A stretch of 64,000 nucleotides of DNA, from the NCBI GenBank assembly GCA_951406725.2, contig OX597827.1, positions 79,484,001 to 79,548,000 of the forward strand, read 5' to 3'. This document shows positions 30,944-64,000 of the stretch, in pieces. Under the pieces are notes generated by a model, which was given only the letters and a program-made list of their open reading frames with translations, ran no database searches and was not told the DNA's origin. Position 1 is the first letter of the stretch; the number at the start of each line of letters is the position of its first letter. The translations under genes were made by a program, and so were the position numbers. This DNA is from Octopus vulgaris. Its lineage: Eukaryota.

Positions 30944-31075
30944 CTAAATTGTTTAATCCTTTGTTTGTGCCACTTTCAGAAGACATTGATTCTTCCATAC
31001 TGTTCCTGTATAACTGCTGCTATAGTAGGGTGACAATGGAAGTATCTTAATGGTGAAGAATGTGAGTCATAGTAG
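30944..31075 (-). promoter_or_regulatory. Conserved promoter / non-coding first exon of gene C
   Basis: TGACTCA at 31063-31069; CTACTATAGCAGCAGTT; ends GGATTAAACAATTTAG|GTAAGT. Confidence 0.7.
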
Positions 31076-31903: not shown

Positions 31904-31992
31904 CTATTTCTTGTATACTGGTTCAAGATATGTGTCTTGTTCATGTTCACCCTTTGGCATTGGTGGTATGTTTGGTGTGTAGTTACCATATT
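31904..31992 (-). CDS. Pcdh: Protocadherin D terminal coding exon (89 bp)
   Basis: tcttccag|AATAT; (E)YGNYTPNIPPMPKGEHEQDTYLEPVYKK*; spliced product 883 aa. Confidence 0.88.
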
Positions 31993-32354
31993 CTGGAAGA
32001 AACAAAAATACTTTATACAATATACATTATCATACAGTATAAAATATACGTTATCTAACATACAGTATTTAAGTAGATTATATATCATTTTTAAAAAATT
32101 ATTTTCTATATCCATGAAAAGTGAAAAAAAAATTGTTTGATTCTAAATTCATCTTACTATAATTACGTTTTATTTGAACATTTTGTTAGATTTAGCTGTA
32201 TATAGTAAAACACTCTTTTAATTTATTCCTTGTGTATTTTATGTAAAGCCCTTCTATTACAATAGAAATGATTTACTGTTATAATTATGATAGAATTGTG
32301 CTTGTGAGTTTATAAGAAATTAATATCTATTTTTAATGATATTTCACACGTTAC

Positions 32355-32502
32355 CTGATATCTGATGTGTAATATCTCCTTCACTCCATCCACGGCCACG
32401 ATCTCTTTGAGATGGTAATGTATCACTTAGGTTGTTTGATGTCACAATGCTGCTGGTGTCATTTTGCTCACCAGATCCATCTGAAACCTGCTTATTATAG
32501 AT
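32355..32502 (-). CDS. Pcdh: Protocadherin D cytoplasmic exon (148 bp)
   Basis: atgacag|ATCTAT...TATCAG|gtaacg; IYNKQVSDGSGEQNDTSSIVTSNNLSDTLPSQRDRGRGWSEGDITHQIS. Confidence 0.9.
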
Positions 32503-38100: not shown

Positions 38101-38208
38101 AAATCATAAGGTAATGATATTAAAGCAAAGAACTGAAATAACTAAATAAAGTACAGCAATTAAACCTAAAGAAAATAAACATATTTACAAAAGTTATTGT
38201 TTAAGTAC

Positions 38209-40623: not shown

Positions 40624-41749
40624 TATTATTCATGGATATACCTCAAAATCTAAAAAGAATATAAAAGAAATTGCTTGAATCAAACAGTCATTATACAGAA
40701 ATATTAATATGGAGAAAATATGTATACTAAAATCAAGTGTACGAAAATTTATCATGTAATATAATCAATAATATTTAGAAATGTTTGTAACATTATGAAA
40801 TAATGAAGTAAAATTTTGATAGTCTCATATGTGCCCGTGGCCAGTTTTCTGAATGAAGCAAAATCCATACTTGGTACAACATAGAAGTATATTCCATAAT
40901 TATAAAAAAAATTTAAATCATAGTAAATAAAATTATCTCTTCACATATATAAAGTGATTAGACTGAGAAATTATTGCCTCTATATCCAAAATTAGACATG
41001 ATAAGAGATTTTAACACATAAACTGTGCTATTTGCTTTTATGAAGTTTTTATGAAAGTTTTCTCATTATGAACTTATTCCTAAGATTGAAATTACTGAAT
41101 TACAGATTGTAAATAATGTAAAAGAAACACATTATTTTTCAAACACTATCATTGCATCTATTTATCATACTTAGCTGTTAAATGGAATTTGATGTTAGGT
41201 CACTTGTGGGTGCATCTGGCAATATCTAACCCAGTCCAACTTGTTTCATAATTAGGTTGTTGCCTACAGAGCTGTTAATTCCACCAAACTTGCATGGTGT
41301 GAAGGGTGATTTTGGATAAGCTGCAGGATGAATAACAAAACTTATCAAAGAGCAGGTAAACTTAGATAAGTCATTAGCCATCCAATAAAACATATATATA
41401 CAGGTTATATATGTGTATGTTAGTGAAATGTTCATATTTCATTCAAATGAAGCATGGAAGAAATAAGTAATCTTCATCTCCCCAGCATTAAAGTTGGCAG
41501 CAGCAGGCTAATGGGGCAACTTTGAGGTGGAAACATAAAGTCATACAGGATTAAAAGCTATGATGCAGAGTAAATATTGAAAACAGTTTTATGACCTGGA
41601 TATGCACAAAGTTTGATATCTTTTTTTCTCCTAAATATTTTGTTTTGATATTCAAAGTGAAATAATCTATGTAGTCACTTGGTCTCTTGAATGTTCTGCC
41701 AAGTCTCTTAACAATGTAACTAATAATATTAATAGTAATAATAATAATA

Positions 41750-43630
41750 ATGAAATTATTGTGTATAGTGCTCAGGTGCATTACAACTCATCAAAGGTGC
41801 ATGTACAGTACATAGAATTATATACAAAAATCAGAGAAGTGAAAAGTGTAAGAGTCATGATATACGTGTGTGCATACATATGGAGTGGGGGGTATCAGGT
41901 GTAACATTGGATAGTTTCAGGAAGTATGGAGTTCTTAAAGGATGCAATGTCTTGGCAACTAACAATTGATGCAGGTAATTTGTTCCATGCTTCAGAAACT
42001 CTGAGGTTGAAAAAATGTTTCCAAAAGTCATGGGAGCTGTGCTGTTTTCTGATTTTGTAGACACACCCATTTGTGTTAGATATATAGAGCTCAAAAAGGT
42101 GCTTAAGGTGGTTGTTGGCATGATGGGTATTAATTTTGTGGGAGTTTACTAGGTCAGTTGCCAGACATTGGACCTTCAATGTATCTATGCCCAGGGAAGC
42201 AAGGAATTCAGAGTATGGTCAATGTCTGATGGAAGGCAATTGCTTGGTTACACATCTCTGAACATTTTCCATGTGGTCAATGTTCTGACAAAGATAGGGG
42301 TTCCAGACTAGTGATACAAATTCCAAGTGTGGCCACACCATAGTCATATACAGTCTTAAATAGATAGCTGGAGAGCGGCTGACAAAAGTCTTGCTGAGTG
42401 ATGACAAGACACCCTCAGGCTTCTTGACAATTTTAGAGATGTGCTTTGCCCAGTGCAAATTGCTGCTGACTGTAATGCCCAGGTCACATTCACAAGAAGA
42501 CTTCTTGATATTAGCGTTGTAGAGAAAGTATGTGAACGTTGGGTTTTTCCTCCAAAAATGCATGGTGGCACACTTGTCCACAGCCAGTTTGAGTTGCTAG
42601 TCCATGATCCATTGTTGCGTTGTGTCAGGTCTGATTGCATGAAAGATCTATAGTGCCCAGGACCTGTCCTTTTTATCTCAAGGTACAGCCTGATGTCATC
42701 TGCATATTTCAGCATGGTGGCATTCTTTAAGTTGCCTTTAATATGTCATTAATGTATGTAACAAACAAAACGGGACCAAGAACAGATCTCTGCAGTACAC
42801 TAGATGTCACGTTATAGGGGGAAGAATGCTGCCCTAGAACTGTGACTACCTCTTTTCAGCTGAGGATGAAGGAGTCCAACCAGTTAAAAATATCATCTTT
42901 CACACCAATTACAGAGAGTTTTGCCATAAGTCTTTTGTGTGGCACAGAATTAAAAGCTTTAGGAATGTCATGGTAAACAATATCCACCCATGTGCCACCA
43001 TTAGGGATCTGGGTGATATCTTTAAAAAAAATGATAAATTGATCACAGCAGCTGGAGTTAGGGATAAATCCAAATTGCGAGGGCTGGATAAGGCTGTGAG
43101 AATTCCAGAAGTTCCAGAGTGCTTCTCTGACATAGAATTCCATCAGTTTGGCAATGCAGTTAGTAAGACTGGTTGGATGATATTTGACAGGTGACATTCT
43201 GTCACACTTTTTGAACAGAGGAATGATACTGCTCAGGAGTAGCACCATTGTTAAGACATAACTGAAAGAAGAGTGAAAGCTGGTGCAGAAGAAAGTACCC
43301 ACTACGTTTGAGAAGCAGGTAGATAACACCATGAAGACCAGGAGAGGCATAGTTGCGCTTATTCTTAAGGTGACGTTGCAGTATTGCAGGTGCAAATTCC
43401 ATAATTGTTATGGAATTTTATATCAGAGGTGGTGGAGATGGTACGTTTTGGTTTTCGACAATACAAATGCCTGCATAGCATTCAGCAATGAGTTCTGTGC
43501 ATTCTTTGGGATCGTCAGTAATCTGGCTTGTGTGGAGATTGCGAAGAGGACCAACTGGAGAGTGAGGTCTCTGCTTTGAACGCACATATTTCCAGAACAC
43601 CTTACTTCAGGATTGGTTGCTATACACTTC
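41750..43630 (-). mobile_element. 5'-truncated CR1-clade LINE remnant
   Basis: Frameshifted ORF2 pieces: IIPLFKK...YHPTSLT, QFGF, DIPKAFNSVPHKRL, YADD, RLYMTMVWPHLEF...WNPY, FFNLRVSEAWNKLP; (AAT)n-like tail. Confidence 0.9.
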
Positions 43631-46200
43631 ATAAATTCTAAATTTCAAGGCAGAGGAAATTGTATGAAGAGGAAACCTGAAACAACTTCAATTGATTCCA
43701 ACTTAGTGCTCAGTTTTCGTTTTTTTTTCTAAGAATGTCACCTGTGTCTGTATTCAGATTAAAGCTATGCAAAATGTTTTTTTCATTGTCTTATATTAAT
43801 CATCAACTTACTTTATTTCCTTTTTATTATATTGTTCATTTGACAGAAATCATGAAGAAAAACAACTTTGAACCACTCACCCTGTGGGAAGATACCCTGT
43901 TGGGTTGGCTATCAATCTTTTTAAAATAAATTTCACTCTCTTTGTGGTTTAAGTTGATCAGAAAAAAAAAATTTAAATATTATTTTCTAATGACAGTTAA
44001 TATATTTTCACTAAAGCTTTTAAGATAACAGAGTTGTTCCCCCTTTCAATCTTGTTATGTTTTATCTTGTTAGTCTGTCGATGCATAGTGTTCTTGGAAG
44101 AAATATATATCTCCAATTGCACATTTTATTGAAATATTTCACTGACTTCTAATCGATGTGGCCCTGTATTATACACTTATAATCTGATTGTTTAAGTAAT
44201 ATTATAGTGGCAACTGACTGATTTCTGTTGACAAAGATTTCCCTTCCAGGAGGACAGTAACGCCAAATAAAATCTGATACAAAATAGAGGAGAATTTTAG
44301 CCTTTAACATTGGCTAACCATTCTAGTTCTGGTGATACAGTCAACACATCCGGTTCACACCGTAAGACTTACATAAAACTGGAAATTTTTTTTTTTTTAC
44401 TGTGTGTGATAGATTACAAGTGTGAGATGAATAATGAGATTTCTTCAATCCATGCCCACATGGAAAAATAGATGTAAAATTACGAAAATGATGAGGAATG
44501 ACAATTTTAATCCTTATTAAAATTCTGGTGTTAAATGATAAATTAACTTTTCATTTAATATGTACAATTGAGATCATATGAAATATAAATCTATGTCTCT
44601 AGTTTTATGATTGTTATTTTCGACTTGTTCTGATCTGCTTTGCTTGAGAAGACACTCAACAAAAGTGTAGTCAATCAACTAAATGAAGACTGCAGATTTA
44701 GATGCCCATACATACTAAACTGCCGTCTGTTGTGATATCATACTATGTTATGTAGACTGTTTGAAATAAAAGTGGATTTCAGAGTATGTTTGAATTTTTG
44801 TACAGTTGTTGGCAATATGAAGCATGTACAAAAGTAAAATCTACATAACAAGTAAATTTTTAATTTTGTGGAAAAGTTGAGTTTGCTACCAGAAATGGCA
44901 TAGACCTTGATGGCTGTCTTAAATAGCTGGAAAAATAATCTTATTTCTTTTACTTATATTTGACTGAAAATTTGTGGTGTGTGTGTTTATGGTGTTTTAG
45001 TTATGATTGTGATTGTTTTTCTATGTGAGTTGAAAACATTACTCAGAAGATTCTAATATTAGTAGAATTATTTACACAAACAAGAAAAATGGTGTTCAGA
45101 TGTTTAACAATAGGTAGCCTCATGTTTCCTGATCAAACTCTTCCAATCTTGATAAAGTAGCAATAATAGAATAGAAATAATTTGTAATTAGGGATAATTT
45201 TGAGGTCATTTATACATATATATATATATATATATATATAAAGAATTGTTAGTTATATTTGCTTATCATCATTATTTATTAAAAATGGGATAAAAAATAA
45301 CTTGCATTTACTGCAAATGACGATTTTTACTTCGTTACACTTGAAAATATAGAATTTTGAATTTGCTTATGTAAGTGGCCAAAATTAAACTGACTAAAAA
45401 TATAATAAATTAAAATATCAAGTGATGCTTGTCTTTGTACAATGAAGTGCAATGATTCACCGAGTGTATGAACATATATTTTCATTTATATACATAGTTA
45501 TTTTAATTATATATATTTACAGTGATACAGATGTTTATATAATTGATTCTGTTTTCTTGATAAGGATAAATTTTAAAGATATCAAAATAAGTTTAGAAAA
45601 TATGTATTTTGTAATTAAGAATAAAAGAAATAACTGAATAATATTTTTAGTTTTAAACATGAATGTCTTCCTTGAGGTTATTTGTAAAATTAATAAAAAC
45701 TTGCAATAAGGAATCAAAACACAGACTCTGAATTTGTTGACAGAGAAACTAAATTCTAAAATGAAATTATATTCTTTGAGACTAGCAGTCCATGCATATT
45801 TTGTTATGCATTTGATTCAATATTCTATTTAAATAGAAAGAAATAAGACATTCTCAAAGGTTAATAAATATTGCCTATTTAAACTGATTTATAGAAATAT
45901 TTGAATTAATAATTTTAATGAAATATAGTAATATGTATGAAAAATATGAAGTAAAATACAGTTAACTGACAGTCTAGTATTTACATAATGATTGCTGTTA
46001 AATATATCTACTTTCACATAGTAACTATCCTACTTCAATAGCAATAGCTTTTGGTAATGGCTACATAATTCCATGGCTTCCTATTTCCTTGCTTGAATAT
46101 ATTATCATTATTAAATATATTAGTATCCATTTCTCATGCTTCAATATCCTAAAATATGAACAGAATATCAAATGAGAAATTACAATGTAATATGACTTAC

Positions 46201-46325
46201 CTACATTGTTTAATCCGTTGTGCTTCCTATAGAAGACATTATTGCATAGTGTTTCAGTGTAACTGCTGCTGTAGTAGTTTGACAAGGGCAGTATGTTGAT
46301 GGTGTAGATTTGTGAGTCATACAGA
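46201..46325 (-). promoter_or_regulatory. Conserved promoter / non-coding first exon of gene D
   Basis: TGACTCA at 46313-46319; CTACTACAGCAGCAGTT; ends GGATTAAACAATGTAG|GTAAGT. Confidence 0.7.
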
Positions 46326-47589
46326 GAGGCAACTATACTCTAAAGACATTTTTTCATCTGAGTATATTGGATTCACTTAAATTATTTTACACAATGATTA
46401 AAATATTGAATAATGAATTTTGCTAAAGTATTTTCAGTTTATTTCAAACTGCATTAATATGTGTGCATGTATACACACACACACACACTTATGCACGTAA
46501 CTATATGTCAAAAGGCATACAATAGATATGGATCAGCTTAGAGTTCAGCAGTCTGAATTCCTAAAATCCAACATCCTAACTGTGTTGCTACATATTCCAC
46601 TGTTAGAAGGAATGGATAGCAACACAATTATAACTTAAATTGATATATTCCATACTTATTTGTTAACATCAGTTTAGTACATATGCATAATGACTATCAC
46701 TACATCTGTTTGTTACTGAATCCTTGATACGGGAGTAAAAGACTACATTGAGTTATTTTCTTTCTTCTCAGTTGTACTTTTGCTTATGAAATCTCTGGAA
46801 AGCTACTCATTTATAGAGGAGTACTATTGACTAACTTCTTGTGTTTCACTTAATTATATTTTATATGCATATTTCTGTAAACTATTTATAAATTTTTTGA
46901 TGTAATAAATCTCTCATTTTATCTTTGTGTTTGTATGCACACACGCACACACACATGCACATAACTAATGAATTATCTCTTGTATGCAGATGCTTATAAC
47001 ACTGATTACGTATTTATGCACTGTGTACTGCAGTATGTAAAATATTAATTTCTAAGTCCAGTAACAATTTCATTATACATACTACAGTGGATTAGTCCTC
47101 TATGAAATACCTATCTAGATTACATGAAAAATAACATTGCTGGAAACTATCATTTTAATAATTTTAAAATATTGATCTGAATGTTCAAAATAGTAGAGTT
47201 AGTGTCAGAAATGGTAAATTGTCAAAGTGTATGTTTTCAAGTAGTTTTGTTTCTATATTTTTTAATTGCACAGTATATTGCTAAAATATCTGTTATTAAT
47301 AAACAACTAATGAGGATTTAATGTTATAAAGTTATCTTTGAAGATTTTGACCAAGTGCATGATCAAAGTTTATCAATTATGTGTCAACATTTCTAATTTA
47401 CATATTTACATATTTACATATTTTTTATATATAAACTTGGATTGATTAGTTCTTGCTATGTATCTGCTGGTTAGATCAATTTTATTTTAGAAGAGTCTCT
47501 TAATTATATTCCATTTCTGGAGTCAAATTGCGAGAGAAATTTAGTTATCCCTAGTACTAAGAATTTGAGTCATGTTAGTCCTGTGATTA

Positions 47590-47678
47590 TTATTTCTTAT
47601 ATATTGGTTCAAGATAAGTGTCTTGTTCTTGTCCACTCTTTGGCATTGGAGGTATGTTTGGTGTATAATTACTATATT
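47590..47678 (-). CDS. Pcdh: Protocadherin E terminal exon (89 bp; downstream of the frameshift)
   Basis: ctttcag|AATAT; (E)YSNYTPNIPPMPKSGQEQDTYLEPIYKK*. Confidence 0.8.
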
Positions 47679-48017
47679 CTGAAAGAGAGAAAAATACAAA
47701 ATAGTATAACTAATATCTGAGAATTGAATTTTGTGTCAATGAGAAGAAAAAAAATGAAAGAAAAATGTAATCAAATACTTGGTTCTAAAATAGTCCTGTA
47801 TTGATATTAAATTAGCTTATCTATTTTCAAAATTTTGTATCTTGGATCTGCTCATGTTACAGCAGCACTTTCTTTTCATTTAGTTTACTTTTCAAGTACT
47901 TCCTATAAACTTTGTATATTGCAATAAAAATTATTCAATGTTATGAATATGATACAACTGCACACATGCACATAGACAAAGTCAGTATCCAATGTCTGTT
48001 GATATTTGACAAGTTAC

Positions 48018-48165
48018 CTGCTGGTTGATGCTTAATATCTCCTTCATTCCAACCACAGTTGTGATCTCTTTGAGATGGCAATGTATCACTTAGGTTGTTT
48101 GATGTCAAAGTGCTACTGTTGTCACCTTGCTCATAAGACCCATCTGCAACCTGTTTATTATAGAT
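48018..48165 (-). CDS. Pcdh: Protocadherin E cytoplasmic exon (148 bp; downstream of the frameshift)
   Basis: ttgacag|ATCTAT...CAGCAG|gtaact; IYNKQVADGSYEQGDNSSTLTSNNLSDTLPSQRDHNCGWNEGDIKHQPA. Confidence 0.8.
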
Positions 48166-48786
48166 CTGTCAATGAAAGAACAAGGACCCAGTCATATATT
48201 TAAGATATTAGATTACACAGTATTACATTTTCATTAAGTACGTTTTAAATTATATTAAAGAATCAATTGAAGAAATATTGCTCAAACAAGTAGGAAATTT
48301 TAATAGATAATACATAGAAATACATAATTTTGCCTATTTAAATTTTGATAATGAATAAATTTAGATAATTAAGGTAACTGAACTCTCTGATTTTTTTTAT
48401 TGAAGAGCTGACCAACTAGATAAGTTTTGTGCGGGAAGAATTGTCATGAATTCTAAAAAGTAATTCTGAAATAAACACATATTTATGAAGGGTGGCATTC
48501 CTCAGAATATGGTAATAACCTGCATTATATTGAATTTATAAACTGCTATGATGAAAGTTATATTTCAGTGATTTTGTACTGTATTTCAAGGTTGATTAAA
48601 TTTGATAAGAAAAATGACTTGTTAAAACTTATAGGCCCACTGATTCAGATGTAACGTGTTAATGTTTAATTGAAGATAGCACCATGCAATACGATGTGTC
48701 CTGGTATATAATATGAGCTGAAGTCTAGAAATTTGATATGGACATAAAGTATTTTAATTGAACATTCTGATTTAATGAGGTTTCTA

Positions 48787-49012
48787 GACCTTTACCTTTT
48801 GACCTACAGATTTAAAAAATAATTTTTTGTAACTAAACACTTTCAAACTTCGTATACTGGTAGAATGTGTCATATAAAACAACTTTTACTCTTCTTTTTT
48901 TCAGAAAAGTTTATGTTTACAAAGTTATTTTGTGTTGAATTTCTCGTATTTCAGTAATTTCAACCAATCAATGACATGTATTCAGCTGAATAAAATTACT
49001 GCCATTGTTTGA
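48787..49012 (+). mobile_element. Single-arm remnant of the 2989-3608 MITE family
   Basis: CTTTACCTTTTGACCTACAGATTTAAAAAATAATTTTTTGTAACTAAACAC matches 2993 onward. Confidence 0.85.
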
Positions 49013-50637
49013 TAGTGGTGGAGATATTGGTTGTATTGATCTTGGTATTGGTAGTGATGATAATGGTGGATATTGTTAACTGTAGCAGTGGTCATATTTT
49101 TCTTGTTAATTGTTTTGTTGTTGCTTTTTACTCTCAAGTCAATTATCATTGACAAAAGATAAAAGACATTGCATTCAGCTTTTAAAATATACTACAGCAC
49201 CACATTATTTCATGTGATTGTCTTTTATTTTAGAAAGGTGTTGCTCTCCATCAGAAATGAGAAAGGGAAAAGTCCAAAGAAAGAGGAGAAGAAGAAATCA
49301 CTGATGGACCATGTGTAGTTACAAACACACACACACACACACATTCATATATATCTGTATGCAGATAGATATAGATAGTCATTGAAGCCCAAGAAAATGT
49401 ATTCCCATCCCCAAGACTAATCACAGTGAAAACTTCCACCTTATATTCTGTGTTTATAGTGACACCTACACATGCCTACACATGTATGTACTGTGATTAA
49501 AGATTTTGAAATTGATAACTATCCTTGGATCTTAGCAAAAATACCAATAAGTTACCTTTTGTTTAAAAAGAAAGTTTAATTTCTAAATTCTCAAAATTTA
49601 TCTGAGTTTCCGTAAGAGCGAAATACTTGACTGTATCCTGGTCATACTTTATATTTTCATAAATATGAATTATTATTTTATATGTGAAAAGAACTTAAGG
49701 CAAATGATTTTAATATAATCTGTTATTATGTTCATTAGGGGAAAATGGTTTGTGAAAGAGCAATGTATAAATTAGGATGAGAATTGGTTAACAGGGAAAG
49801 ACCATTTATAGAGATGACAGTCAGTTGATTAGACTTATGACCAAATGGCAGAAAGCAATTGAGGAACACATCTGAAATTAATAGGAGACAAGGCATATTA
49901 CTTTTCAAGCAAATTTAATGAAATTAATGAAAAAATTTAAAATATTTTCATAAAAAAATAAGTTGTTGAGGAGAAAATGGTGGTTTCCAAAATAAAAATG
50001 GTAAAATATTTTGCATGATAAAAACAATACAAAAGATTGTCTGTTGATAAGCACTGGAAAAATTGTAGTGCTTTCTAGGAAAGGTGGGTTGTGGTAAGGA
50101 ATAATCAACATAGAAAGAAGTTTATCTGCCTCACTTTGTCAACTAGAATATTTTACATATCTGGTGGGAGGACAGTTTCACTTATTAGTGTGGCTGGACA
50201 TTGTAAATTACATCTTGATTACTACAGCAACAAAATCCATGAGCACAGATGATGAATTCAGGGTAAAAGTACAGGGCTGTATTCTCAGTTTCCTCTTATT
50301 CAACATAGTCATCCAGGCCATAACAGAGAAATTTAGCTGGTTGCCCATGGAAACAACTATATGCTGATGACCTCACTTTTATAGTAGAATCTGTAGTGAA
50401 ATTGCAGAAAGCAAATAAGATTCTCCTTCTTTCAGGTAGATGGCCCTGTTCAGTATGTGGGAAAGGTGTTGGAAAAAATTCCATTCAAGTGAGAGGCAAA
50501 TGTAGATGACTAGTGAGGAATAAAGCTGATGTGCAACATCAGTGCGCATGTATGACAAAGTGCAAGAGTTCAATCAAATGTGGCATGCAAGAGAGAAGTT
50601 GAATCAAATGTAGCATGCAAGAGAGAGGACTATGATT

Positions 50638-51054
50638 TATTTACATTATTTACATTTAACATGTTTCGGATAACACAACGTTTCGGCTGCTATACCCTCC
50701 AGCCTTCATCAGGTGTCTTGGGGAAATTTCAAACCTGGGCTCTCATTCCTAAGGTATTTTTCAATGTTATTATTATTATTGTTATTATTCAGGCCTCTGC
50801 CTGCAATCGAACTTGGAATCTTGGGGTTAGTAGCCTGCGCTCTTAACCACTACATCATATACCTGTGGGCAATTATGGAGTGAATTTTAGGGCTTATAAA
50901 TCTAATATTTTCCTATCCTTCCTTAGTTCCGGATGAAGGCTGGAGGCGATATCCACCGAAATATTGTATTAACAACAAACAAGATGAGGACAAATATCCA
51001 TCATGTGTAAATAATGTACATAATTCCTCATCTCTTAAATATAGAACTGTAAGG
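50638..51054. mobile_element. tRNA-headed element with outward-facing hammerhead motifs (same family as 2253-2752)
   Basis: Minus-strand tRNA-like head at ~50795-50865, hammerhead core at 50672-50717, second degenerate copy on the plus strand at ~50929-50970; flanked by CTATGATT (50630-50637 and 51055-51062). Confidence 0.8.
50672..50717 (-). ncRNA. Minimal type I hammerhead ribozyme motif (Penelope-type)
   Basis: GACAC-CUGAUGA-A-GGCUG-gagggUaUag-CAGCC-GAAAC-GUU-GUGUU: stem I GACAC/GUGUU, stem II GGCUG/CAGCC, loopless palindromic stem III (ACGU). Activity not shown. Confidence 0.7.
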
Positions 51055-52193
51055 CTATGATTGTTTGCACATGTGATAAGTGTGAATGAAGACAGCTGTA
51101 TAAAGAAATGTCAGTCTCTTAAAGTGGATGGCACCTGTGGAAACCCAGATAGACATGGGATGAAGTAGTGGGGACTGATCTCAAGAAGTTGGCCCTCATA
51201 TAGGAGATGACAATGGATCAAGATGTCTGGCCGTATGATGTTCTTAGGAAGTCCTGCCCACCTCAGTGAAACTGTTTCCTGGAAGTGCTGTGTATTCTAC
51301 CAACATGTAACATTCATTCACACATTGTACCCTAGCAAATCAAATCAAATTACATCTCTTCTTCTGCTCCCCACCATGCACTATACTTACCTTTATCTTC
51401 TCACTCCTGTAGCCCAATCATGTCCTCTCCACTGCCAAATGTATCATTGCTAGCCTGTTGCCTCCTCCCCCATATACCAATGTTTCACCATTCACTGCAT
51501 CCACCCCTCCCCACTTTTCCTTTTCTCTCCCCTTTTTGCACTTATAAGAACTTTTTACTCATGTATCCTGAGAAATCCTTTACCATTCCATTTATATACA
51601 TATCCTTGTACCTTGAGAGTATGCCCTGGTACATAGTCACCATCTCTCTCACCACCTCTCACTTTTGTTGTCTCTCTTGCTCTATCTCTCTCTCTCACTC
51701 TCTCTTGCTCTCTATCTATCTATCTATTTATCTCTTTCTCTCCCCACCACAACTACAATAACCATATATCTCCTCCACAACAAAACACCTTTTCCCCCTT
51801 CGTTCATTCTCTTTCCTCTCATCACCTAGCACAAAGCCACCTACTTCAACACTCCATACCACTCAAGTGAGCTTTGCCTTTCAAGTTTCTTGGTGACCTT
51901 GCTAGTACTGGTACCTCACAAAAAGTACGCAGTTTACTCAGTAAGGTGGTTGGTGTTAGGAAGGGTGTCCAGCTGTAAAAAGCTGGCCAAAGTAGACGGT
52001 GGAGCTTGGCACAGTGCTGTGACTTAGCAGCTCCTGTCAAACCATCCAATCTATACTCGCAGTGAACACTGTTTCATAATCTCTTGTGTCTATATGAATT
52101 AGAATTTGATGACCTATACAACATTGAAAAGTATAGATTAAAGAAGAAAATCAAAAATATAACACTTGAAAAATAGATATATGGCATAGGTAC

Positions 52194-54606
52194 CTGTGGA
52201 ACTGGTGGAAGCTTTCTGGGTGTTGTTGAGTAGTTCCATTCATTGGTCAACTGGTCTATTTCTGGATAGTATGAACATTTAGGGTTTATTGACTGAAGAT
52301 TTCTGCTAAATATCTCTTCTGCATTTCTCGTTATTGCAACAGGATTGTTTGTCTGATACAGAATTTGTCTCATTTCAGTCCTCGATAGAAATTTTGGATT
52401 ATCTTTTTCTCCAGATGAATTATTGAAGTGATTAATACATTTGAAAACACATAGTTATTGACACTACAACAGCCACAGATAGTATTACAGCTGCTGCTAC
52501 AATGATAATTATCCAAGTCATATTCAGGTTGTTATCAGACTGTGAGTGGATAGCAGTCAACATTGGAGATGTATCGTTACTAACAAACAGTGTTAGTATG
52601 ATAGCAGTTGTTGCTGATTGAACTGGAGTACCACCGTCTTTCACTATAAACTGCAGCTCATATGTTCCTGCATCATTTTGGTAAACTGTGCGAGAGAAAG
52701 ATAACACACCAGTGTGTGAGTTCACTGTAAACAGGTTTTTATCATTGGATCTCAGTATTCCATATGTGAGGAAAGCATTGTTTCCAGTGTCTTTGTCAGA
52801 TGCTTTCAGAATTGTGATGTCCTTCTTACTGTGTGGATGGTAGTGGACATCGAGATTGTAAGGGTCATTATTAGGAAAGATAAAATACGGAGCATTGTCA
52901 TTTTTATCCAGAATCTCTATAAGAATATTGGCAGTATTATTCAGAGAAGGTGTTCCATTGTCTTTGACTAATACCTGTAAATTATAGATGTCTTTCACTT
53001 CTCGATCTATTGGTTGTGATGTAGAAATGAATCCATATTTTGTCAGTTGGAAAGGAATGTTATCATTGTTGTTATCATTGATGATAGAATATGTAAGTTG
53101 GCCTCCATCTCCAAGATCAGGGTCTGTAGCATTGATGAAGCCAATAGGGAAGTTAACTTTCTGGTTTTCATAGGTGAGGAATTGGAATGTCTCTTTGGTA
53201 AAATGTGGTTCTACATCATTGACATCAGTTACTTTGACAGAGAACTGTTTCTTAGTCTTTAATGGAGGTGATCCCATGTCATGACATACAATAGAAACAA
53301 CATAATGGTCTATAGTTTCTCTGTCAAGAGGTTCTTTCACCAATATTTTATATTCTTTAGAACCCATATTAGAAAGCTGGAACATTTTATGGTGAATATT
53401 ACATTTAATTTGTCCATTAGGCCCATTATCAGTGTCAATGACCATAACGTAAGCTATAAAACTCCCAATTTTACTTCCTTCTGAAATAGCAGTAGAAGTC
53501 TTTGTTAAAGGTGATATAAAATCTATATTTATTGCTGGAGCATTATTTTGATTGTTAATTACATTTACAATCAACGTTGACATGGAGCTTAATGAAGGAT
53601 TTCCACCATCCCTAGCTTCAACGTATAACTGGTATTTACTTTCCTTATTTCTAAAGAAATTATCATTGATGAAGATTTCTCCAGATTTATGATTTAATTT
53701 GAAATACTTTTTATCATATTCATTTGTATTTCTATGTAAAAAATAATTAATATTTCCATTTTGACCAGAATCTAAATCTGTTGCTGATAAAACAAAAACA
53801 GGAGAAGATATATGATGTGTGTCACTGATGGTGGTATTATATAATTTTTGTGTAAACGTAGGTCTGTTATCATTGACATCAATAACAGATATTTCAATGT
53901 CCAGAATACCTTCTTTTGGTGGAGAACCCCCATCTCTAGCGATCAACTGTAACATATATGTGTCTTTTAATTCTCTATCTAACATCCCTTCTAGAATTAT
54001 TTTAAGTAAATTTATTCCATCAGATTCTTTAAATATGGAGAGCGAGAATTTTTTGCTTTTATCTTTGAGTTTATATATTATCTTAGAATTTGGAAGACTA
54101 ATGTCTTTATCAACAGCATTTGGTATTGATTTTGTTGATCCTTTCACATCTGTTTCATAGAATTTGATTTTTATTTTGTTTGATGGGAACTCTGGTTGAT
54201 GATCATTAATATCTTCTATAATTATTTTAATGTTTAATATCTTTAGAAATGTTTCCTCTTTCCTTACTGCTACTTTAACAGTTCTAGAGCATTCTTTCTT
54301 GTAAACACAAAGTTTTTCAGCATCCAATGTTTGAGTAGTGTATAGTTTTCCTAAGCTTGTGACATTAAATAAGTGAGAACCACTTGATACTGTTCTCTGT
54401 AGTTGTGTAAATGTAATGAGTGTGAGCTGTTGATGTGTAAGAGGATTTGATAGGTTAGAGTTAGCTGCAATATCTCCAATGTATGTGTGTGGACTGTCTT
54501 CTTCATTGACATGGTAAATGTAGTCTATCGACATGACAGAATACATTAGTCCATAGAAAAGGTAAAACTGCAAAGTATTGCTTGTCATCTCATTATTGTA
54601 ATTCAT
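52194..54606 (-). pseudogene. Pcdh: Protocadherin E, large exon with a 2-bp deletion after the TM (truncated 724-aa product or pseudogene)
   Basis: ORF 52432..54606 ends ITMCFQMY* versus ITMCVFKCINH in paralogs (ATGTGTTTTC vs ATGTGTGTTTTC). The rest of the exon continues in ORF 52074..52373 to the donor CAG|GTACCT at 52194/52193. Length 2413 = 2415 (gene D) - 2. Confidence 0.85.
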
Positions 54607-55734
54607 TATTATTCATGGATATACCTCAAAATCTAAAAAGAATATAAAAGGCATTACTTGAATCAAACAGTCATTATACACAAATATTAATATGGAGAAA
54701 ATATGTATACTAAAATCAAGTGTACAACATTTATCATGTAATATAATCAATAATATTTAGAAATGTTTGTAACATTATGAAATAATGAAGTAAAATTTTG
54801 ATAGTCTCATATGTGCCTGTGGCCAGTTTTCTGAATGAAGCAAAATCCATACTTGGTACAACATAGAAGTATATTCCATAATTATAAAAAAAATTTAAAT
54901 CATAGTAAATAAAATTATCTCTTCACATATATGAAGTGATTAGAATGAGAATGCATTGCCTCTATATCCAAAATTAGACATGATAAGAGATTTTAACACA
55001 TAAACTGTGCTATTTGCTTTTATGAAGTTTTTATGAAAGTTTTCTCATTATGAACTTATTCCTAAGATTGAAATTACTGAATTACAGATTATAAATAATG
55101 TAAAAGAAACACATTATTTTTCAAACACTATCATTGCATCTATTTATCATACTTAGCTGTTAAATGGAATTTGATGTTAGGTCACTTGTGGGTGCATCTG
55201 GCAATATCTAACCCAGTCCACCTTGTTTCATAATTAGGTTGTTGGCTACAAAGCTGTTAATTCCACCAAACTTGCATGGTGTGAAGGGTGATTTTGGATA
55301 AGCTGCAGGATGAATAACAAAACTTATCAAAGAGCAGGTAAACTTAGATAAGTCATTAGCCATCCAATAAAACATATATATGCAGGTTATATATGTGTAT
55401 GTTAGTGGAATGTTCATATTTCATTCAAATGAAGCATGGAAGAAATAAGTAATCTTCATCTCCCCAGCATTAAAGTTGGCAGCAGCAGGCTAATGGGGCA
55501 ACTTTGAGGTGGAAACATAAAGTCATACAGGATTAAAAGCTATGATGCAGAGTAAATATTGAAAAAAGTTTTATGACCTGGATATGCACAAAGTTTGATA
55601 ACTTTTTCTCACCTAAATATTTTGTGTTGATATTCAAAGTGAAATAATCTATGTAGTCACTTGGTCTCTTGAATGTTCTGTCAAGTCTCTTAACAATATA
55701 ACTAATAATATTAATAGTAATAATAATGATAATG

Positions 55735-57605
55735 AAATTATTGTGTATAGTGTTCAGGTGAATTACAAGGTGTATGTACAGTACATAGAATTATATACAA
55801 AAATCAGAGAAGTGAACAGTGTAAGAGTCATGATGTACATTTGTGCATACGTATGGAGTGGTGGGGATATCAGGTGTAGCATTGGCATGGTTCAGGAAGT
55901 ATGGAGTTCTTAAAGGATGCAATGTCTTGGCAGCTAACAGTTGATGCAGGTAATTTGTTCCATGCTTCAGAAACTCTGAGTTTGAAAAAATGTTTCCAAA
56001 AGTCATGGGAGCTGTGCTGTTTTCTGACTTTGTACACACACCAATTTGTGTTAGATACATAGAGCTCAAAAAGGTGCTCAAGGTGGTTGTTGGCATGATG
56101 GGTAATAATATTGTGGGAGTGTACTAGGTCAGTTGCCAGACATCGGAGCTTTAATGTATCTATGCCCAGGGAAGCAAGGAATTCAGAGTATGGTCAATGT
56201 CTGATGGAAGGCAATTGCTTGGTAGCACATCTCTGAACATTTTCCAGGAGGTCAATGTTCTGACGAAGATAGGGGTTCCAGACTAGTGATGCAAATTCCA
56301 AGTGTGGCCACACCATAGCCATATACAGTCTTAAACAGATAGCTGGAGAGCAGCTGACAAACGTCTTGCTGAGTGATGCCAAGACACCCTCAGCCTTCTT
56401 GTCAATTTTAGAGATGTGCTTCGCCCAGTGCAAAATGCTGCTGACTAATGCCCAGGTCACATTCACAAGAAGACTTCTTGATATTAGTGTTGTAGAGAAA
56501 GTATGTGGACGTTGGGTTTTTTCCTCCAAAAATGCATGGTGGAACACTTTTCCACAGCCAGTTTGAGTTGCTAGTCCATGATCCATTGTTGCGTTGTGTC
56601 AGGTCTGATTGCATGAAAGATCTATAGTGCCCAGGACCTGTCCTTTTTATCTCAAGGTACAGCCTGATGTCATCTGCATATTTCAGCATGGTGGCATTCT
56701 TTAAGTTGCCTTTAATATGTCAATAACGTATGTAACAAACAAAAGGGGACCAAGAACAGATCTCTGCAGTACACTAGATGTCACGTTATAGGGGGAAGAA
56801 TGCTGCCCTAGAACTGTGACTACCTCTTTTCAGCTGAGGATGAAGGAGTCCAACCAGTTAAAAAGATCATCTTTCACACCAATTGCAGAGAGTTTTGCCA
56901 TAAGTCTTTTGTGTGGCACAGAATTAAAAGCTTTAGCAATGTCATTGTAAACAATATCCACCCATGTGCCACCATTAGGGATCTGGGTGATATCTTTAAA
57001 AAAAATGATAAATTGATCACAGCAGCTGGAGTTAGGGATAAATCCAAATTGCGTGGGCTGGATAAGGCTGTGAGAATTCCAGAAGTTCCAGAGTGCTTCT
57101 CTAACATAGGATTCCATCAGTTTGGCAATGCAGTTAGCAAGACTGACTGGATGATAGTTGACAGGTGACGTTCTGTCACCCTTTTTGAACAGAGGAATGA
57201 TACTGCTCCGGAGTAGCACCATTGTTAAGACATAACTGAAAGAAGAGTGAAAGCTGGTGCAGAAGAAAGTACCCACTACGTTTGAGAAGCAGGTACATAA
57301 CACCATGAAGACCAGGAGAGGCATAGTTGCGCTTATTCTTAAGGTGACGTTGCAGTATTGCAGGTGCAAATTCCATAATTGTTATGGAATTTTATATCAG
57401 AGGTGGTGGAGATGGTACGTTTTGGTTTTCGACAATACAAATACCTGCATAGCATTCAGCAATGAGTTCTATGCATTCTTTGGGATCGTCAGTAATCTGG
57501 CTTGTTTGGAGATTGCGAAGAGGACCAACTGGAGAGTGAGGTCTCTGCTTTGAACGCACATATTTCCAGAACACCTTACTTCAGGATTGGTTGCTATACA
57601 CTTCT
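55735..57605 (-). mobile_element. CR1-clade LINE remnant (duplicate of 41750-43630)
   Basis: Same RT motifs (DIAKAFNSVPHKRL, YADD) at the same position in the duplicated unit. Confidence 0.9.
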
Positions 57606-60167
57606 TAAATTCTAAATTTCAAGGCAGAGGAAATTGTATGAAGAGGAAACCTGAAACAACTTCAATTGATTCCAACTTAGTGCTCAGTTTTCGTTTTTTT
57701 CTCTAAGAATGTCACCTGTGTCTGTATTCAGATTAAAGCTATGCAAAATGTTTTTTTCATTGTCTTATATTAATCATCAACTTACTTTATTTCCCTTTTA
57801 TTATATTGTTCATTTGACAGAAATCATGAAGAAAAACAACTTTGAACCACTCACCCCGTGAGAAGATACCCTGTTGGGTTGGCTATTAATCTTTTTAAAA
57901 TAAATTTCGCAGTCTTTGTGGTTTAAGTTAATCAGAAAAAAAAAAAATTAAATATTACTTTCTAATGACAGTTAATATATTTTCACTAAAGCTTTTAAGA
58001 TAACAGAGTTGTTCCCCCTTTCAATCTTGTTATGTTTTATCTTGTTAGTCTGTCGATGCATGGAAGAAATATGTATCTCCAATTGCACATTTTATTGAAA
58101 TATTTCACTGACTTCTAATCGATGTGGCCCTGCATTATTCACTTATAATCTGATTGTTTAAGTAGTATTATATTGGCAACTGACTGATTTCTGTTGACAA
58201 AGATTTGCCTTCCAGGAGGACAGTAATTCCAAATAAAATATGATTCAAAATAGAGGAGAAATTTAGCCTTTAACATTGGCTAACCATTCTAGTTCTGGTG
58301 ATACAGTCAACACATCCGGTTCACACCGTAAGACTTACATAAAACTGGAAATTTTTTTTTGTTACTGTGTGTGATAGATTACAAGTGAGAGATGAATAAT
58401 GAGATTTCTTCAATCCATGCCCACATGGAAAAATAGATGTAAAATTACAAAAATGATGAGGAATGATAATTTTAATCCTTATTAAAATTCTGGTGTTAAA
58501 TGATAAATTAATTTTCCATTTAATATGTACTTTTGAGATCATATGAAATATAAATCTATGTCTCTAGTTTTATGATTGTTATTTTCGACTAGTTCTGATC
58601 AGCTTTGCTTGAGAAGACACTCAACAAAAGTGTAGTCAATAAACTAAATGAAGACTGCAGATTTAGATGCCCATACATACTAAACTGCCGTCTGTTGTGA
58701 TATCATACTATGTTATGTAGACTGTTTGAAATAAAAGTGGATTTCAGAGTATGTTTGAATTTTTGTACAGTTGTTGGCAATATGAAGCATGTACAAAAGT
58801 AAAATCTACATAACAAGTAAATTTTTCATTTTGTGGAAGAGTTGAGTTTGCTACCAGAAATGGCATAGACCTTGATGGCTGTCTTAAATAGCTGGAAAAA
58901 TAATCTTATTTCTTTTACTTATATTTGACTGAAAATTTGTGGTGTGTCTGTTTATGGTGTTTTAGTTATGATTGTGATCGTTTTTCTATGTGAGTTGAAA
59001 ACATTACTCAGAAGATTCTAATATTAGTAGAATTATTTACACAAACAAGAAAAATGGTGTTCAGATGTTTAACAATAGGTAGCCTCATGTTTCCTGATCA
59101 AACTCTTCCAATCTTGATAAAGTAGCAATAATAGAATAGAAATAATTTGTAATTAGGGATAATTTTGAGGTCATTTATACATATTATATATATATATATA
59201 TATATAAAGAATTGTTAGTTATATTTGCTTATCATCATTATTTATTAAAAATGGGATAAAAAATAACTTGCATTTACTGCAAATGACGATTTTTACTTCG
59301 TTACACTTGAAAATATAGAATTTTGAATTTGCTTATGTAAGTGGCCAAAATTAAACTGACTAAAAATATAATAAATTAAAATATCAAGTGAATGCTTGTC
59401 TTTGTACAATGAAGTGCAATGATTCACTGAGTGTATGAACATATATTTTCATTTATATATATAGTTATTTTAATTATATATATTTACAGTGATACAGATG
59501 TTTATATAATTGATTCTGTTTTCTTGATAAGGATAAATTTTAAAGATATCAAAATAAGTTTAGAAAATATGTATTTTGTAATTAAGAATAAAAGAAATAA
59601 CTGAATAATATTTTTAGTTTTAAACATGAATGTCTTCCTTGAGGTTATTTGTAAAATTAATAAAAACTTGCAATAAGGAATCAAAACACAGACTCTGAAT
59701 TTGTTGACAGAGAAACTAAATTCTAAAATGAAATTATATTCTTTGAGACTAGCAGTCCATGCATATTTTGTTATGCATTTGATTCAATATTCTATTTAAA
59801 TAGAAAGAAATAAGACATTCTCAAAGGTTAATAAATATTGCCTATTTAAACTGATTTATAGAAATATTTGAATTAATAATTTTAATGAAATATAGTAATA
59901 TGTATGAAAAATATGAAGTAAAATACAGTTAACTGACAGTCTAGTATTTACATAATGATTGCTGTTAAATATATCTACTTTCACATAGTAACTATCCTAC
60001 TTCAATAGCAATAGCTTTTGGTAATGGCTACATAATTCCATGGCTTCCTATTTCCTTGCTTGAATATATTATCATTATTAAATATATTAGTATCCATTTC
60101 TCATGCTTCAATATCCTAAAATATGAACAGAATATCAAATGAGAAATTGCAATGTAATATGACTTAC

Positions 60168-60292
60168 CTACATTGTTTAATCCATTGTGCTTCCAATAGA
60201 AGACATTATTGCATAGTGTTTCAGTGTCACTGCTGCTGTAGTAGTTTGACAAGGGCAGTATGTTGATGGTGTAGATTTGTGAGTCATACAGA
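60168..60292 (-). promoter_or_regulatory. Conserved promoter / non-coding first exon of gene E
   Basis: TGACTCA at 60280-60286; ends GGATTAAACAATGTAG|GTAAGT; duplicate of 46201-46325. Confidence 0.7.
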
Positions 60293-61420
60293 GAGCCAAC
60301 TATACTCTAAAGACATTTTTTAATCTGAGCATATAGGATTCACTTAAATTATTTTACACAATGATTAAAATATTGAATAATGAATTTTGCTAAAGTATTT
60401 TCAGTTTATTTCAAACTGCATTAATATGTGTGCATGTATACACACACACACACACTTATGCACGTAACTATATGTCAAAAGGCATACAATAGATATGGAT
60501 CAGCTTAGAGTTCAGCAGACTGAATTCCTAAAATCCAACATCCTAATTGTGTTGCTACATATTCCACTGTTAGAAGGAATGGATAGCAACACAATTATAA
60601 CTTAAATTGATATATTCCATAGTTATTTGTTAACATCAGTTTAGTACATATCTATGTATGCATAATGACTATCACTACATCTGTTTGTTACTGAATCCTT
60701 GATACGGGAGTAAAAGACTACATTGAGTTATTTTCTTTCTTCTCAGTTGTAATTTTGCTTATGAAATCTCTGGAAAGCAACTAATTTATAGAGGAGTACT
60801 ATTGACTAACTTCTTGTGTTTGACTTAATTATATTTTATATGCATATTTCTGTAAACTATTTATAAATTTTTTGATGCAATAAATCTCTCATTTTATCTG
60901 TGTGTTGTATGCACACACGCACACACACATGCACATAACTAATGAATTATCTCTTGTATGCAGATGCTTATAACACTGATGTGCATATTTATGCACTGTG
61001 TACTGCAGTATGTAAAATATTAATTTCTAAGTCCAGTAACAATTTCATTATACATACTACAGTGGATTAGTCCTCTATGAAATACCTATCTAGATTACAT
61101 GAAAAATAACATATCTGTTATTAATAAACAACTAATGAGGATTTAATATGTTATAAAGTTATCTTTGAAGATTTTGACCAAGTGCATGATCAAAATTTAT
61201 CAATTATGTGTCAACATTTCTAATTTACATATTTACATATTTACATATTTTTTTATATATAAACTTGGATTAATTAGTTCTTGCTATGTATTTGCTGATT
61301 AGATTAATTTTATTTTAGAAGAGTCTCTTAATTATATTCCATTTCTGGAGTCAAATTGCGAGAGAAATTTAGTTATCCCTAGTACTAAGAATTTGAGTCA
61401 TGTTAGTCCTGTGATTATTA

Positions 61421-61509
61421 TTATTTCTTATATATTGGTTCAAGATAAGTGTCTTGTTCTTGTCCACTCTTTGGCATTGGAGGTATGTTTGGTGTATAAT
61501 TACTATATT
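61421..61509 (-). CDS. Pcdh: Protocadherin F terminal exon
   Basis: 89 bp, apparently identical to 47590-47678, ends TYLEPIYKK*. Confidence 0.85.
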
Positions 61510-61844
61510 CTGAAAGAGAGAAAAATACAAAATAGTATAACTAATATCTGAGAATTGAATTTTGTGTCAATGAGAAGAAAAAAAATGAAAGAAAAATGTA
61601 ATCAAATACTTGGTTCTAAAATAGTCTTGTATTGATATTAAATTAGCTTATCTATTTTCAGAATTTTGTATCTTGGATCTGCTCATGTTACAGCACTTTC
61701 TTTTATTTAGTTTACTTTTCAAGTACTTCCTATAAACTTTGTATATTGCAATAAAAATTATTCAATGTTATGAATATGATACAACTGCACACATGCACAT
61801 AGACAAAGTCAGTATCCAATGTCTGTTGATATTTGACAAGTTAC

Positions 61845-61992
61845 CTGCTGGTTGATGCTTAATATCTCCTTCATTCCAACCACAGTTGTGATCTCTTTGA
61901 GATGGCAATGTATCACTTAGGTTGTTTGATGTCAAAGTGCTACTGTTGTCACCTTGCTCATAAGACCCATCTGCAACCTGTTTATTATAGAT
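61845..61992 (-). CDS. Pcdh: Protocadherin F cytoplasmic exon (large exon lies beyond the window)
   Basis: 148 bp, apparently identical to 48018-48165, splice sites intact. Confidence 0.85.
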
Positions 61993-62613
61993 CTGTCAAT
62001 GAAAGAACAAGGACCCAGTCATATATTTAAGATATTAGATTACACAGTATTACATTTTTATTAAGTACATTTTAAATTATATTAAAGAATCAATTGAAGA
62101 AATATTGCTCAAACAAGTAGGAAATTTTAATAGATAATACATAGAAATACATAATTTTGCCTATTTAAATTTTGATAATGAATAAATTTAGATAATTAAG
62201 GTAACTGAACTCTCTGATTTTTTTAATTGAAGAGCTGACCAACTAGATAAGTTTTGTGCGGGACGCATTGTCATGAATTCTAAAAAGTAATTCTGAAATA
62301 AACACATATTTATGAAGGGTGGCATTCCTCAGAATATGGTAATAACCTGCATTATATTGAATTTATAAACTGCTATGATGAAAGTTATATTTCAGTGATT
62401 TTGTACTGTATTTCAAGGTTGATTAAATTTGATAAGAAAAATGACTTGTTAAAATTTATAGACCCAGTGATTCAGATGTAACATGTTAATGTTTAATTGA
62501 AGATAGCACCATGCAATACGATGTGTCCTGGTATATAATATGAGCTGAAGTCTAGAAATTTGATATGGACATAAAGTATTTTAATTGAACATTCTGATTT
62601 AATGAGGTTTCTA

Positions 62614-62842
62614 GACCTTTACCTTTTGACCTACAGATTTAAAAAATAATTTTTTGTAACTAAACACTTTCAAACTTCGTATACTGGTAGAATGTGTCAT
62701 ATAAAACAACTTTTACTCTTCTCTTTTTTTCAGAAAAGTTTATGTTTACAAAGTTATTTTGTGTTGAATTTCTCGTATTTCAGTAATTTCAACCAATCAA
62801 TGACATGTATTCAGCTGAATAAAATTACTGCCATTGTTTGAT
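62614..62842 (+). mobile_element. Single-arm MITE remnant (duplicate of 48787-49012)
   Basis: Same sequence within the tandem duplication. Confidence 0.85.
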
Positions 62843-64000
62843 AGTGGTGGTGATATTGGTTGAATTAATCTTGGTATTGGTAGTGATGATAATGGTGGAT
62901 ATTGTTAACTGTAGCAGTGGTCATATTTTTCTTGTTAATTGTTTTGTTGTTGCTTTTTACTCTCAAGTCAATTATCATTGACAAAAGATAAAAGACATTG
63001 CATTCAGCTTTTAAAATATACTACAGCACCACATTATTTCATGTGATTGTCTTTTATTTTAGAAAGGTGTTGCTCTCCATCAGAAATGAGAAAGGGAAAA
63101 GTCCAAAGAAAGAGAAGAAGAAATCACTGATGGACCATGTGTAGTTACAAACACACACACACACACACATTCATATATATCTGTATGCAGATAGATATAG
63201 ATAGTCATTGAAGCCCAAGAAAATGTATTCCCATCCCCAAGACTAATCACAGTGAAAACTTCCACCTTACACTCTGTGTTTATAGTGAGACCTACACATG
63301 CCTACACATGTATGTACTGTGATTAAAGATTTTGAAATTGATAACTATCCTTTGATCTTAGCTAAAATACCAATAAGTTACCTTTTGTTAAAAAAGAAAG
63401 TTTAATTTCTAAATTCTCAAAATTTATCTGAGTTTCTGTAAGAGCAAAATACTTGACTGTATCCTGGTCATACTTTATATTTTCATAAATATGAATTATT
63501 ATTTTATATGTGAAAAGAACTTAAGGCAAATGATTTTAATATAATCTGTTATTATGTTCATTAGGGGAAAATGGTTTGTGAAAGAGCAATGTATAAATTA
63601 GGATGAGAATTGGTTAACAGAGAAAGACCAGTTATAGAGATGATAGTCAGTTGATTAGACTTATGACCAAATGGCAGAAAGCAATTGAGGAACACATCTG
63701 AAATTAATAGGAGACAAGGCATATTACTTTTCAAACAAATTTAATGAAATTAATGAAAAAATTTAAAATATTTTCATAAAAAAATAAATTGTTGAGGAGA
63801 AAATGGTGGTTTCCAAAATAAAAATGGTAAAATATTTTGCATGATAAAAACAATACAAAAGATTGTCTGTTGATAAGCACTGGAAAAATTGTAGGGCTTT
63901 CTAGGAAAGGTGGGTTGTGGTAAGGAATAATCAACAGAGAAAGAAGTTTATCTGCCTCACTTTATCAACTAGAATATTTTACATATCTGGTGGGTGGACA

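Follow-up and report, generated by a model that had tools for sequence, protein, structure and literature searches.

The window analysed here, a stretch of 64,000 nucleotides (nt) of Octopus vulgaris DNA (contig OX597827.1, positions 79,484,001 to 79,548,000), is filled by a minus-strand array of Octopus protocadherin genes, which in the order of transcription are F (whose large exon lies off-window), E, D, C, B and A, each composed of a leader exon, one large exon and its own tail exons. In this array, gene E is a hybrid of a D head and an F tail, likely produced by one unequal crossover between mispaired F and D genes in the segment that runs from the fourth extracellular cadherin repeat to the transmembrane segment (EC4-TM). 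As read from its sequence, E consists of the promoter region, leader, intron 1 and EC1 of D, followed by the cytoplasmic end, intron 2 and tail exons of F, and it appears to be a duplication of the anti-Lepore type, in that its 5' part groups with the downstream parent and its 3' part with the upstream parent (46/47 diagnostic sites, and the trees described below). A preliminary description of this DNA had proposed that crossover in a homogenised segment turned F-D into F-[D head/F tail]-D, a proposal that is well supported by the tandem register of the locus, the switch in diagnostic sites, the trees and the gene order of orthologues.

Composition of gene E

The head of E is of the D type. 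Its leader exon (60168..60421, minus strand), which is likely non-coding and whose start is not fixed, has a GT donor after 60168, and a contig of run X13 (guessed to be RNA) ends at precisely 60168, with a further 55 letters that fall elsewhere, its source, E or D, being ambiguous. Intron 1 (54633..60167, minus strand) differs from intron 1 of D at 134/5522 nt, and the two have in common a fragment of a long interspersed nuclear element (LINE), which confirms the earlier reading that leader and first intron, insertion included, match D. The LINE insertion (about 55300-57640) is aligned in both copies, has a high repeat depth and contains a reverse-transcriptase fragment (56833..57381, minus strand; Pfam RVT_1, E=1.6e-12). 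The large exon (52194..54632, minus strand; ATG at 54606) encodes the signal, EC1-EC6, TM and the first cytoplasmic part. Here D and E differ at 4/381 nt in signal and EC1, 28/339 in EC2, 5/330 in EC3, 12/324 in EC4, 5/315 in EC5, 10/451 in EC6-TM and 35/255 in the cytoplasmic part, so that identity is 96-99% through EC4-TM and drops to 86% only in the cytoplasmic part. It had been stated that EC1-EC3 match D almost exactly, which holds for signal and EC1 and for EC3 but not for EC2, and that D/E identity breaks down near the start of EC4, where the contrasting motifs VTDTDRGANG and VIDTDNGPNG are indeed present but identity remains high. For this reason D/E identity itself was rejected as a marker of the breakpoint; what the sequences indicate near the start of EC4 is that D and E cease to be each other's closest relative.

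The difference in EC2 is found because D carries a patch at the start of this repeat (40143..40233, minus strand) that resembles A/Y-type paralogues, with 12/89 nt differing between D and A and 18/89 between D and E inside it, as opposed to 3/299 between D and E just upstream. The patch is absent from Octopus sinensis D, Octopus bimaculoides D and both E copies; a conversion patch in E was considered and rejected, since orthologues place it in D. This ~90-bp patch is likely a recent gene conversion into a putative specificity domain and is possibly polymorphic.

Downstream of the large exon, E is of the F type. Intron 2 (48166..52193, minus strand) differs at 29/2005 nt from the upstream copy where that copy is visible, while it is essentially unalignable with intron 2 of D, the only match being a short one (134 bp, 69%). 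Tail exon 3 (48018..48165, minus strand; IYNKQVADG...NCGWNEGD...) and the coding part of tail exon 4 to the stop (47590..47678, minus strand) are also F-type, and over the tail coding exons E and F differ at 0/234 nt, compared with 35/234 between D and E. The corresponding exons of the upstream gene (exon 3, 61845-61992; exon 4, 61421-61509; both minus strand) are assigned to F by orthology, as its large exon is off-window. These values bear out the earlier assignment of E's downstream intron and tail exons to F rather than D, and the motifs NCGWNEGD (E and F) and RGWSEGD (D) had been read correctly. At the end of the large exon (residues 761-805), E differs from F at 2-4/45 residues and from D at 14-15/45, so that the match between the 3' ends of the F and E large exons, which had been set beforehand as a test, was obtained with F read from orthologues. 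The F and D tails themselves differ at 13/49 exon-3 residues and at 14/45 residues of the large-exon end. An X13 contig ends at the 47678 acceptor but carries the ATT insertion of the upstream copy; by these contig ends, the D/E leader type and the E/F exon-4 type look spliced, neither being assignable to E.

The absence of a Helitron and a mariner from intron 2 of E, also claimed earlier, was confirmed, as the PIF1 helicase fragments (37611-38037, plus strand) and the DDE transposase fragment (Transposase_1; 33951-34283, plus strand) that Pfam detects in intron 2 of D are absent from E. The labels Helitron, mariner and CR1 fit the Pfam domains found (matches in 5/12 scanned fragments) and stand at the level of domains only.

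A tandem unit that starts and ends inside genes

Self-BLAST aligns the D head with the E head (38202-47137 against 52187-61112; 8951 bp, 96.7% identity) and the E tail with the upstream tail (47282-50174 against 61107-64000; 2901 bp, 98.2%). These two long matches abut and are the halves of one ~14 kb tandem unit of F tail, spacer and D head, which begins within one large exon and stops within the following one. By self-BLAST and global alignment, copy 1 (38202..52187, minus strand) comprises intron 2 and tail of E, the spacer, and the leader, intron 1 and large exon of D, and copy 2 (52187..64000, minus strand, extending beyond the window) comprises intron 2 and tail of F, the spacer, and the leader, intron 1 and large exon of E. 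The matches are separated by a 150-bp segment (47136-47286) that the E-D spacer contains and the F-E spacer lacks, and that is usable as a copy-specific marker. Non-coding divergence without the LINE is 74/4276 (1.73%) in the head and 40/2879 (1.39%) in the tail, values that are statistically alike (p=0.29), in line with a single event. Just downstream of the leader donor there is a 688-bp run without any D/E difference (59461-60149 vs 45494-46182), which suggests recent conversion or constraint.

Switch point, trees and orthologues

At 50 sites, D (from the window and O. sinensis) and F (from O. vulgaris and O. sinensis) are fixed for different residues, and E takes a side at 47 of them, having its own residue or being polymorphic at the other 3. 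A single switch from D to F fits 46 of these 47 sites, a score reached by 0/20000 shuffles, and the best-fitting position is at residues 379-408 in early EC4 (53385..53472, minus strand). Since sites 379 and 408 could each be later parental changes, the safe range is wider, from residue 358 to 768 (52305-53535, minus strand). Upstream of it, residues 171-352 are nearly identical in D, E, F, G and J and so are uninformative for the switch; this second homogenised block (late EC2-EC3; window about 54096-53553) is common to those genes in O. vulgaris and O. sinensis and is not shared by O. bimaculoides D (24/182 differences). In the EC1 tree (27 rows), E groups with D, including O. bimaculoides D (bootstrap 98), while in the tree of the cytoplasmic end and tail (29 rows) it groups with F, including O. 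bimaculoides F (100), and D groups with D (100).

In O. sinensis, the fused model XP_036365291.1 (P0121) reads six genes in the order H, G, F, E, D, C, with the F-type tail and the D-type head each occurring twice and both junctions linked by the same cryptic segment of D/E intron 1; its E is in frame and shows no internal gap against window E except at the frameshift column considered below. A second model, XP_029645434.2 (P0135), joins EC3/EC4 of E to a full F-type tail. Residues 394N, 485N and 792N are common to window E and O. sinensis E and occur in 0 of 14-15 other Octopus rows, and window E differs from O. sinensis E at 12/779 positions, compared with 30/731 from window D or O. sinensis D. 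In the O. bimaculoides model P0130, the F tail is followed by the D head and the D tail, with no E, and F tail running straight into D would be the ancestral order on this comparison. The flanking of the hybrid by both parents and the gain of one gene are thus seen in F-E-D (O. sinensis) as opposed to F tail-D (O. bimaculoides), on the basis of fused gene models and with the F head off-window. A search among longer proteins added one relevant model, an H+G fusion, and published O. vulgaris models were not counted as independent support for E.

Proposed mechanism

Differences at four-fold sites among A-D amount to 34-40% in EC1-3, 15% in EC4, 6.4% in EC5-TM and 17% in the cytoplasmic part, and the low synonymous divergence of EC5-TM argues for conversion rather than protein constraint alone, an argument that has also been made for fugu (PMC1852091). 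In the mechanism proposed, gene conversion would keep EC4-TM alike across all genes of the cluster, and the homogenised segment would provide ~1 kb or more of homology, letting neighbours mispair. A crossover in this block would then yield, as one product, F-[D head/F tail]-D, with the F tail, spacer and D head duplicated; it would have taken place once the O. bimaculoides lineage had separated, but before O. vulgaris and O. sinensis diverged. Later conversion, such as that producing the EC2 patch of D, would make the D and E heads diverge again, and we infer from this patch and from the identical run beside the D/E leader donor that conversion is ongoing. The resulting gene is expected to couple a second D-like promoter and ectodomain to an F-type tail.

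Alternative explanations

Several observations weigh against a single crossover as the origin of E. Counted with the LINE, the head is more divergent than the tail (2.35% vs 1.39%, p=0.002); CpG decay was rejected as the reason for the raised LINE divergence, as it concerns only 9/78 differences. With residues 171-352 nearly identical among genes, the location of the switch depends on a small number of sites at 356-379 and on site 408, and with the F large exon off-window, the F label rests on orthologues and the upstream tail may come from another E-like gene. Most of the F large exon is missing from the O. bimaculoides model, so that an E may have been overlooked, and fused models can mis-splice, as the last gene of P0121 is a C head (large exon) on Y tail exons, a join that probably reflects mis-mapped junction reads, the alternative being long-range splicing between genes. 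The published O. vulgaris set has a single model between C and F, CAI9733467.1, with an E-type head and truncated in TM (VAVVCQ), and no D-type cytoplasmic motif was found in O. vulgaris proteins among the 294 proteins compared, so that copy number may vary or the annotation may be incomplete. That these published models show one D/E-type head would also be expected if the assembler had joined two haplotypes of an F-D locus inside the homogenised exon, which would give exactly this register. Such a join would fall in the most ambiguous sequence, the frameshift of E might be a consensus error, and the non-coding divergence of the copies (1.4-2.4%) is near the heterozygosity of O. vulgaris (>1.1%; PMC6472339). 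However, the order F-E-D is also present in the O. sinensis assembly, the three E-private residues are common to both species, and window E is nearer to O. sinensis E than to D of either species; as alleles joined by chance are unlikely to repeat this pattern in a second species, an artefact is hardly credible. A haplotype join had been named beforehand as what would refute the hybrid, and it is the second species' assembly, with E in it, that answers this point. Contig depths from 4/24 sequencing runs over region 46900-60900, where contig depth is not copy number, leaned to two copies in the three DNA-type samples (X1, X2 and X5) and were not used as evidence: they were 78-105 (X1), 31-53 (X2) and 62-109 (X5; one exon contig at 316 omitted) inside the unit, with no single-copy control, and 52-71 (X1), 15-23 (X2) and 35-72 (X5) for most contigs joining repeat pieces from elsewhere, some of which were higher (e.g. 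117.5, 33.7).

Another way to arrive at the same mosaic is duplication of the entire D (or F) gene, after which a long conversion tract would have swapped the tail (or head) for that of the neighbour. Conversion is active in this array, as seen in the EC2 patch of D, the identical run by the leader donor and the homogenised EC4-TM, and it can mimic crossover chimeras (PMC4041002). A tract of this kind would nevertheless need to replace 5 kb or more of sequence (intron, tail and spacer) that does not align, and apart from the 150-bp indel at 47136 the spacer shows no second breakpoint. The two halves, head and tail, are similar in age and adjoin each other in a single tandem unit, and one crossover accounts for both the gene gain and the mosaic, which leaves duplication with conversion very unlikely and unequal crossover as the preferred origin of E.

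Frameshift and function of gene E

Just after TM, E carries a 2-bp TG deletion (52446..52454, minus strand), by which the frame ends in SITMCFQMY and a stop; the deletion sits in a (TG)n run, the frame downstream stays open, and E of O. sinensis is in frame. If real, the frameshift would remove the tail from this E allele. Contigs with intact TG make up 520/1040 of the depth in X1, 146/286 in X2, 41/260 in X5 and 123/123 in X13, for which any paralogue could be the source. A rival view of function, which is compatible with a crossover origin, is that E is a by-product that is being lost in O. vulgaris, where it would be a pseudogene or copy-number variant without any protein-level reshuffling. 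A premature stop upstream of two exon junctions is expected to trigger nonsense-mediated decay, and that of E lies in such a position; moreover, the published E-type model of O. vulgaris also ends early, in TM, through a different lesion. On the other hand, E of O. sinensis is in frame in two models, the deletion lies in a run prone to consensus errors, several other published cluster models of O. vulgaris are truncated or split, the reading frame stays open past the deletion, and the tail exons of E equal those of F. Loss of function is therefore a serious possibility, though somewhat less likely than a gene that is still intact.

The comparison of this crossover with a germline analogue of vertebrate variable/constant splicing, made in the preliminary description, does not hold beyond a loose analogy, as the head of E was a copy of D at birth and this E is frameshifted before its tail. 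As E began with the front of the D ectodomain, it would have gained no new specificity at birth, the EC2 changes being later, and a reshuffling of specificity against signalling is only an analogy. In vertebrates, EC2/EC3 carry homophilic specificity (PMC5001838), and no partners are known for octopus protocadherin tails (PMC6339937).

Generality of the pattern

A further example comes from Argonauta hians, where the genes GAB1604128-131 read as head X/tail T, head Y/tail T, head Y/tail T and head Y/tail U, the direction of transcription being inferred from synteny with the next sub-array. In EC1, 128 and 129 differ by 28% and 129-131 by 1-7%, and in tail exon 3 the difference is 2% among 128-130 and 58% for 131. 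These sequences represent the same register of tail plus head, repeated, with two hybrid genes, and they do not group with D, E or F in trees. In contrast, the block GAB1604118-126 has flush ends, which shows that whole-gene duplication also occurs. The claim that EC4-TM is a recurrent recombination hinge thus gains one further case and one counter-case. By neighbour distances, the hybrid signature is found in 1/12 Octopus genes (E) and 1/2 recent Argonauta blocks, and older events may be eroded. It is conceivable, although rather doubtful, that EC4-TM is a standing hinge, that arrays grow mainly in units of tail, promoter and head, with the germline recombining halves and selection keeping pairings, and that E and Argonauta 129/130 arose independently.

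The nine near-identical genes GAB1604118-126 (P0008-P0011, P0013, P0016, P0284-P0286) differ by about 16-36% in EC2, 2-10% in EC1 and 1-3% in EC5-TM. This EC2-focused diversification is strong and is a candidate for positive selection, and the position of EC2 as the most variable domain is suggestive, by analogy, of a role in specificity. In the next sub-array of O. vulgaris and O. sinensis (P0017, P0018, P0020, P0032, P0035-P0037, P0040, P0046) and in Argonauta P0019-P0030, many genes have nearly the same tail from TM to the end (RCDSIHSQ...), which amounts to a constant region maintained through duplication or conversion and not through splicing.

Other features of the array

The large open frames of the window lie at 5258-7693 (A), 16800-19238 (B), 24707-27133 (C), 38194-40629 (D) and 52432-54612 (E), all on the minus strand. 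Each encodes six cadherin repeats, TM and a short cytoplasmic part in one large exon, as in octopod clustered protocadherins; Pfam recognises Cadherin_2 and five Cadherin stretches, and linkers, TM and exon limits are consistent with a six-repeat protocadherin. The five large exons on one strand, with separate tail exons per gene, form a head-to-tail array, and shared constant exons such as those of a vertebrate-type variable/constant cluster were not found, every gene in the window owning its tail exons. Tail exon 3 was located for A-F and exon 4 for B-F within the window, while exon 4 of A, the last tail exon, was not found within it (checked region 1-1690); fused models of O. bimaculoides also pass from exon 3 of A directly into the next gene. 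The large exon of D, the parent of the E head, lies at 38209..40649 (minus strand), with the leader donor at 46201, and tail exons 3 and 4 of D (31904..32502, minus strand; RGWSEGD type) are orthologous to the D tail of O. bimaculoides. Donors were placed for the leaders of D and E; the leader region of C (30920-31172) is 70% like the D/E leader (60144-60383), and those of B and A match less well. The spliced B and C proteins equal published O. vulgaris models over 677 and 861 residues and show 19/879 and 34/777 differences from O. sinensis, respectively, which places the DNA in O. vulgaris or a very close relative.

Relation to known systems and significance

The closest structural match to E is found in anti-Lepore globin fusions (PMC4041002), which also arise by unequal crossover of tandem paralogues and in which the fusion of a downstream 5' part with an upstream 3' part is flanked by both parents. 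Differences are that globin is replaced by protocadherin, that homology in E is confined to an internal homogenised block of ~1-1.8 kb, and that both parents are kept in octopus and the function of E is putative only. In the clustered protocadherins of fugu, zebrafish and human, a divergent EC1-EC3 is likewise followed by a near-identical 3' ectodomain, with a homogenisation boundary in EC4 or EC5 that has been attributed to gene conversion (PMC1852091). Unlike in octopus, however, the constant tail exons of vertebrate alpha/gamma genes are shared by splicing, so that crossover mixes variable exons only; as promoter and tail exons are separate for each octopus gene, a head acquires a different tail by crossover.

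The window array belongs with the coleoid sub-arrays of head-to-tail multi-exon genes shaped by tandem duplication and conversion (PMC9068888, PMC9795677, PMC6339937), in which each gene has its own tail exons (PMC9068888), and duplication with conversion has already been proposed for such arrays (PMC9068888, PMC9795677, PMC10084454, PMC13218726, PMC4151104, PMC6472339, PMC6339937). The coleoid papers speak of 'full gene duplications', whereas the unit described here has both its ends within genes and gives rise to a hybrid. No report of head/tail hybrid cephalopod protocadherins was found in the literature covered, to which supplements, Albertin 2015 and Wang and Ragsdale 2017, which might describe the pattern, did not belong; the crossover mechanism is known, and the hybrid in cephalopod protocadherins is apparently unreported.

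Gene E offers a dated and polarised example of a cephalopod array gaining a gene from inside genes rather than between them, and unequal-crossover hybrids may help protocadherin clusters grow. The head/tail pairings that such crossovers would produce are out of reach in this way for vertebrate alpha/gamma clusters. Whole-gene trees, orthology calls and Jukes-Cantor dates (e.g. the 8-14 Ma (million years ago) burst; PMC9795677) mix segments with different histories, and if the hinge reading were true, the 'full gene duplication' view and the dating of the expansion from whole coding sequences would need revising. Taken together, E, D and F are a natural choice for asking whether tails differ in signalling and whether the EC2 changes alter binding.

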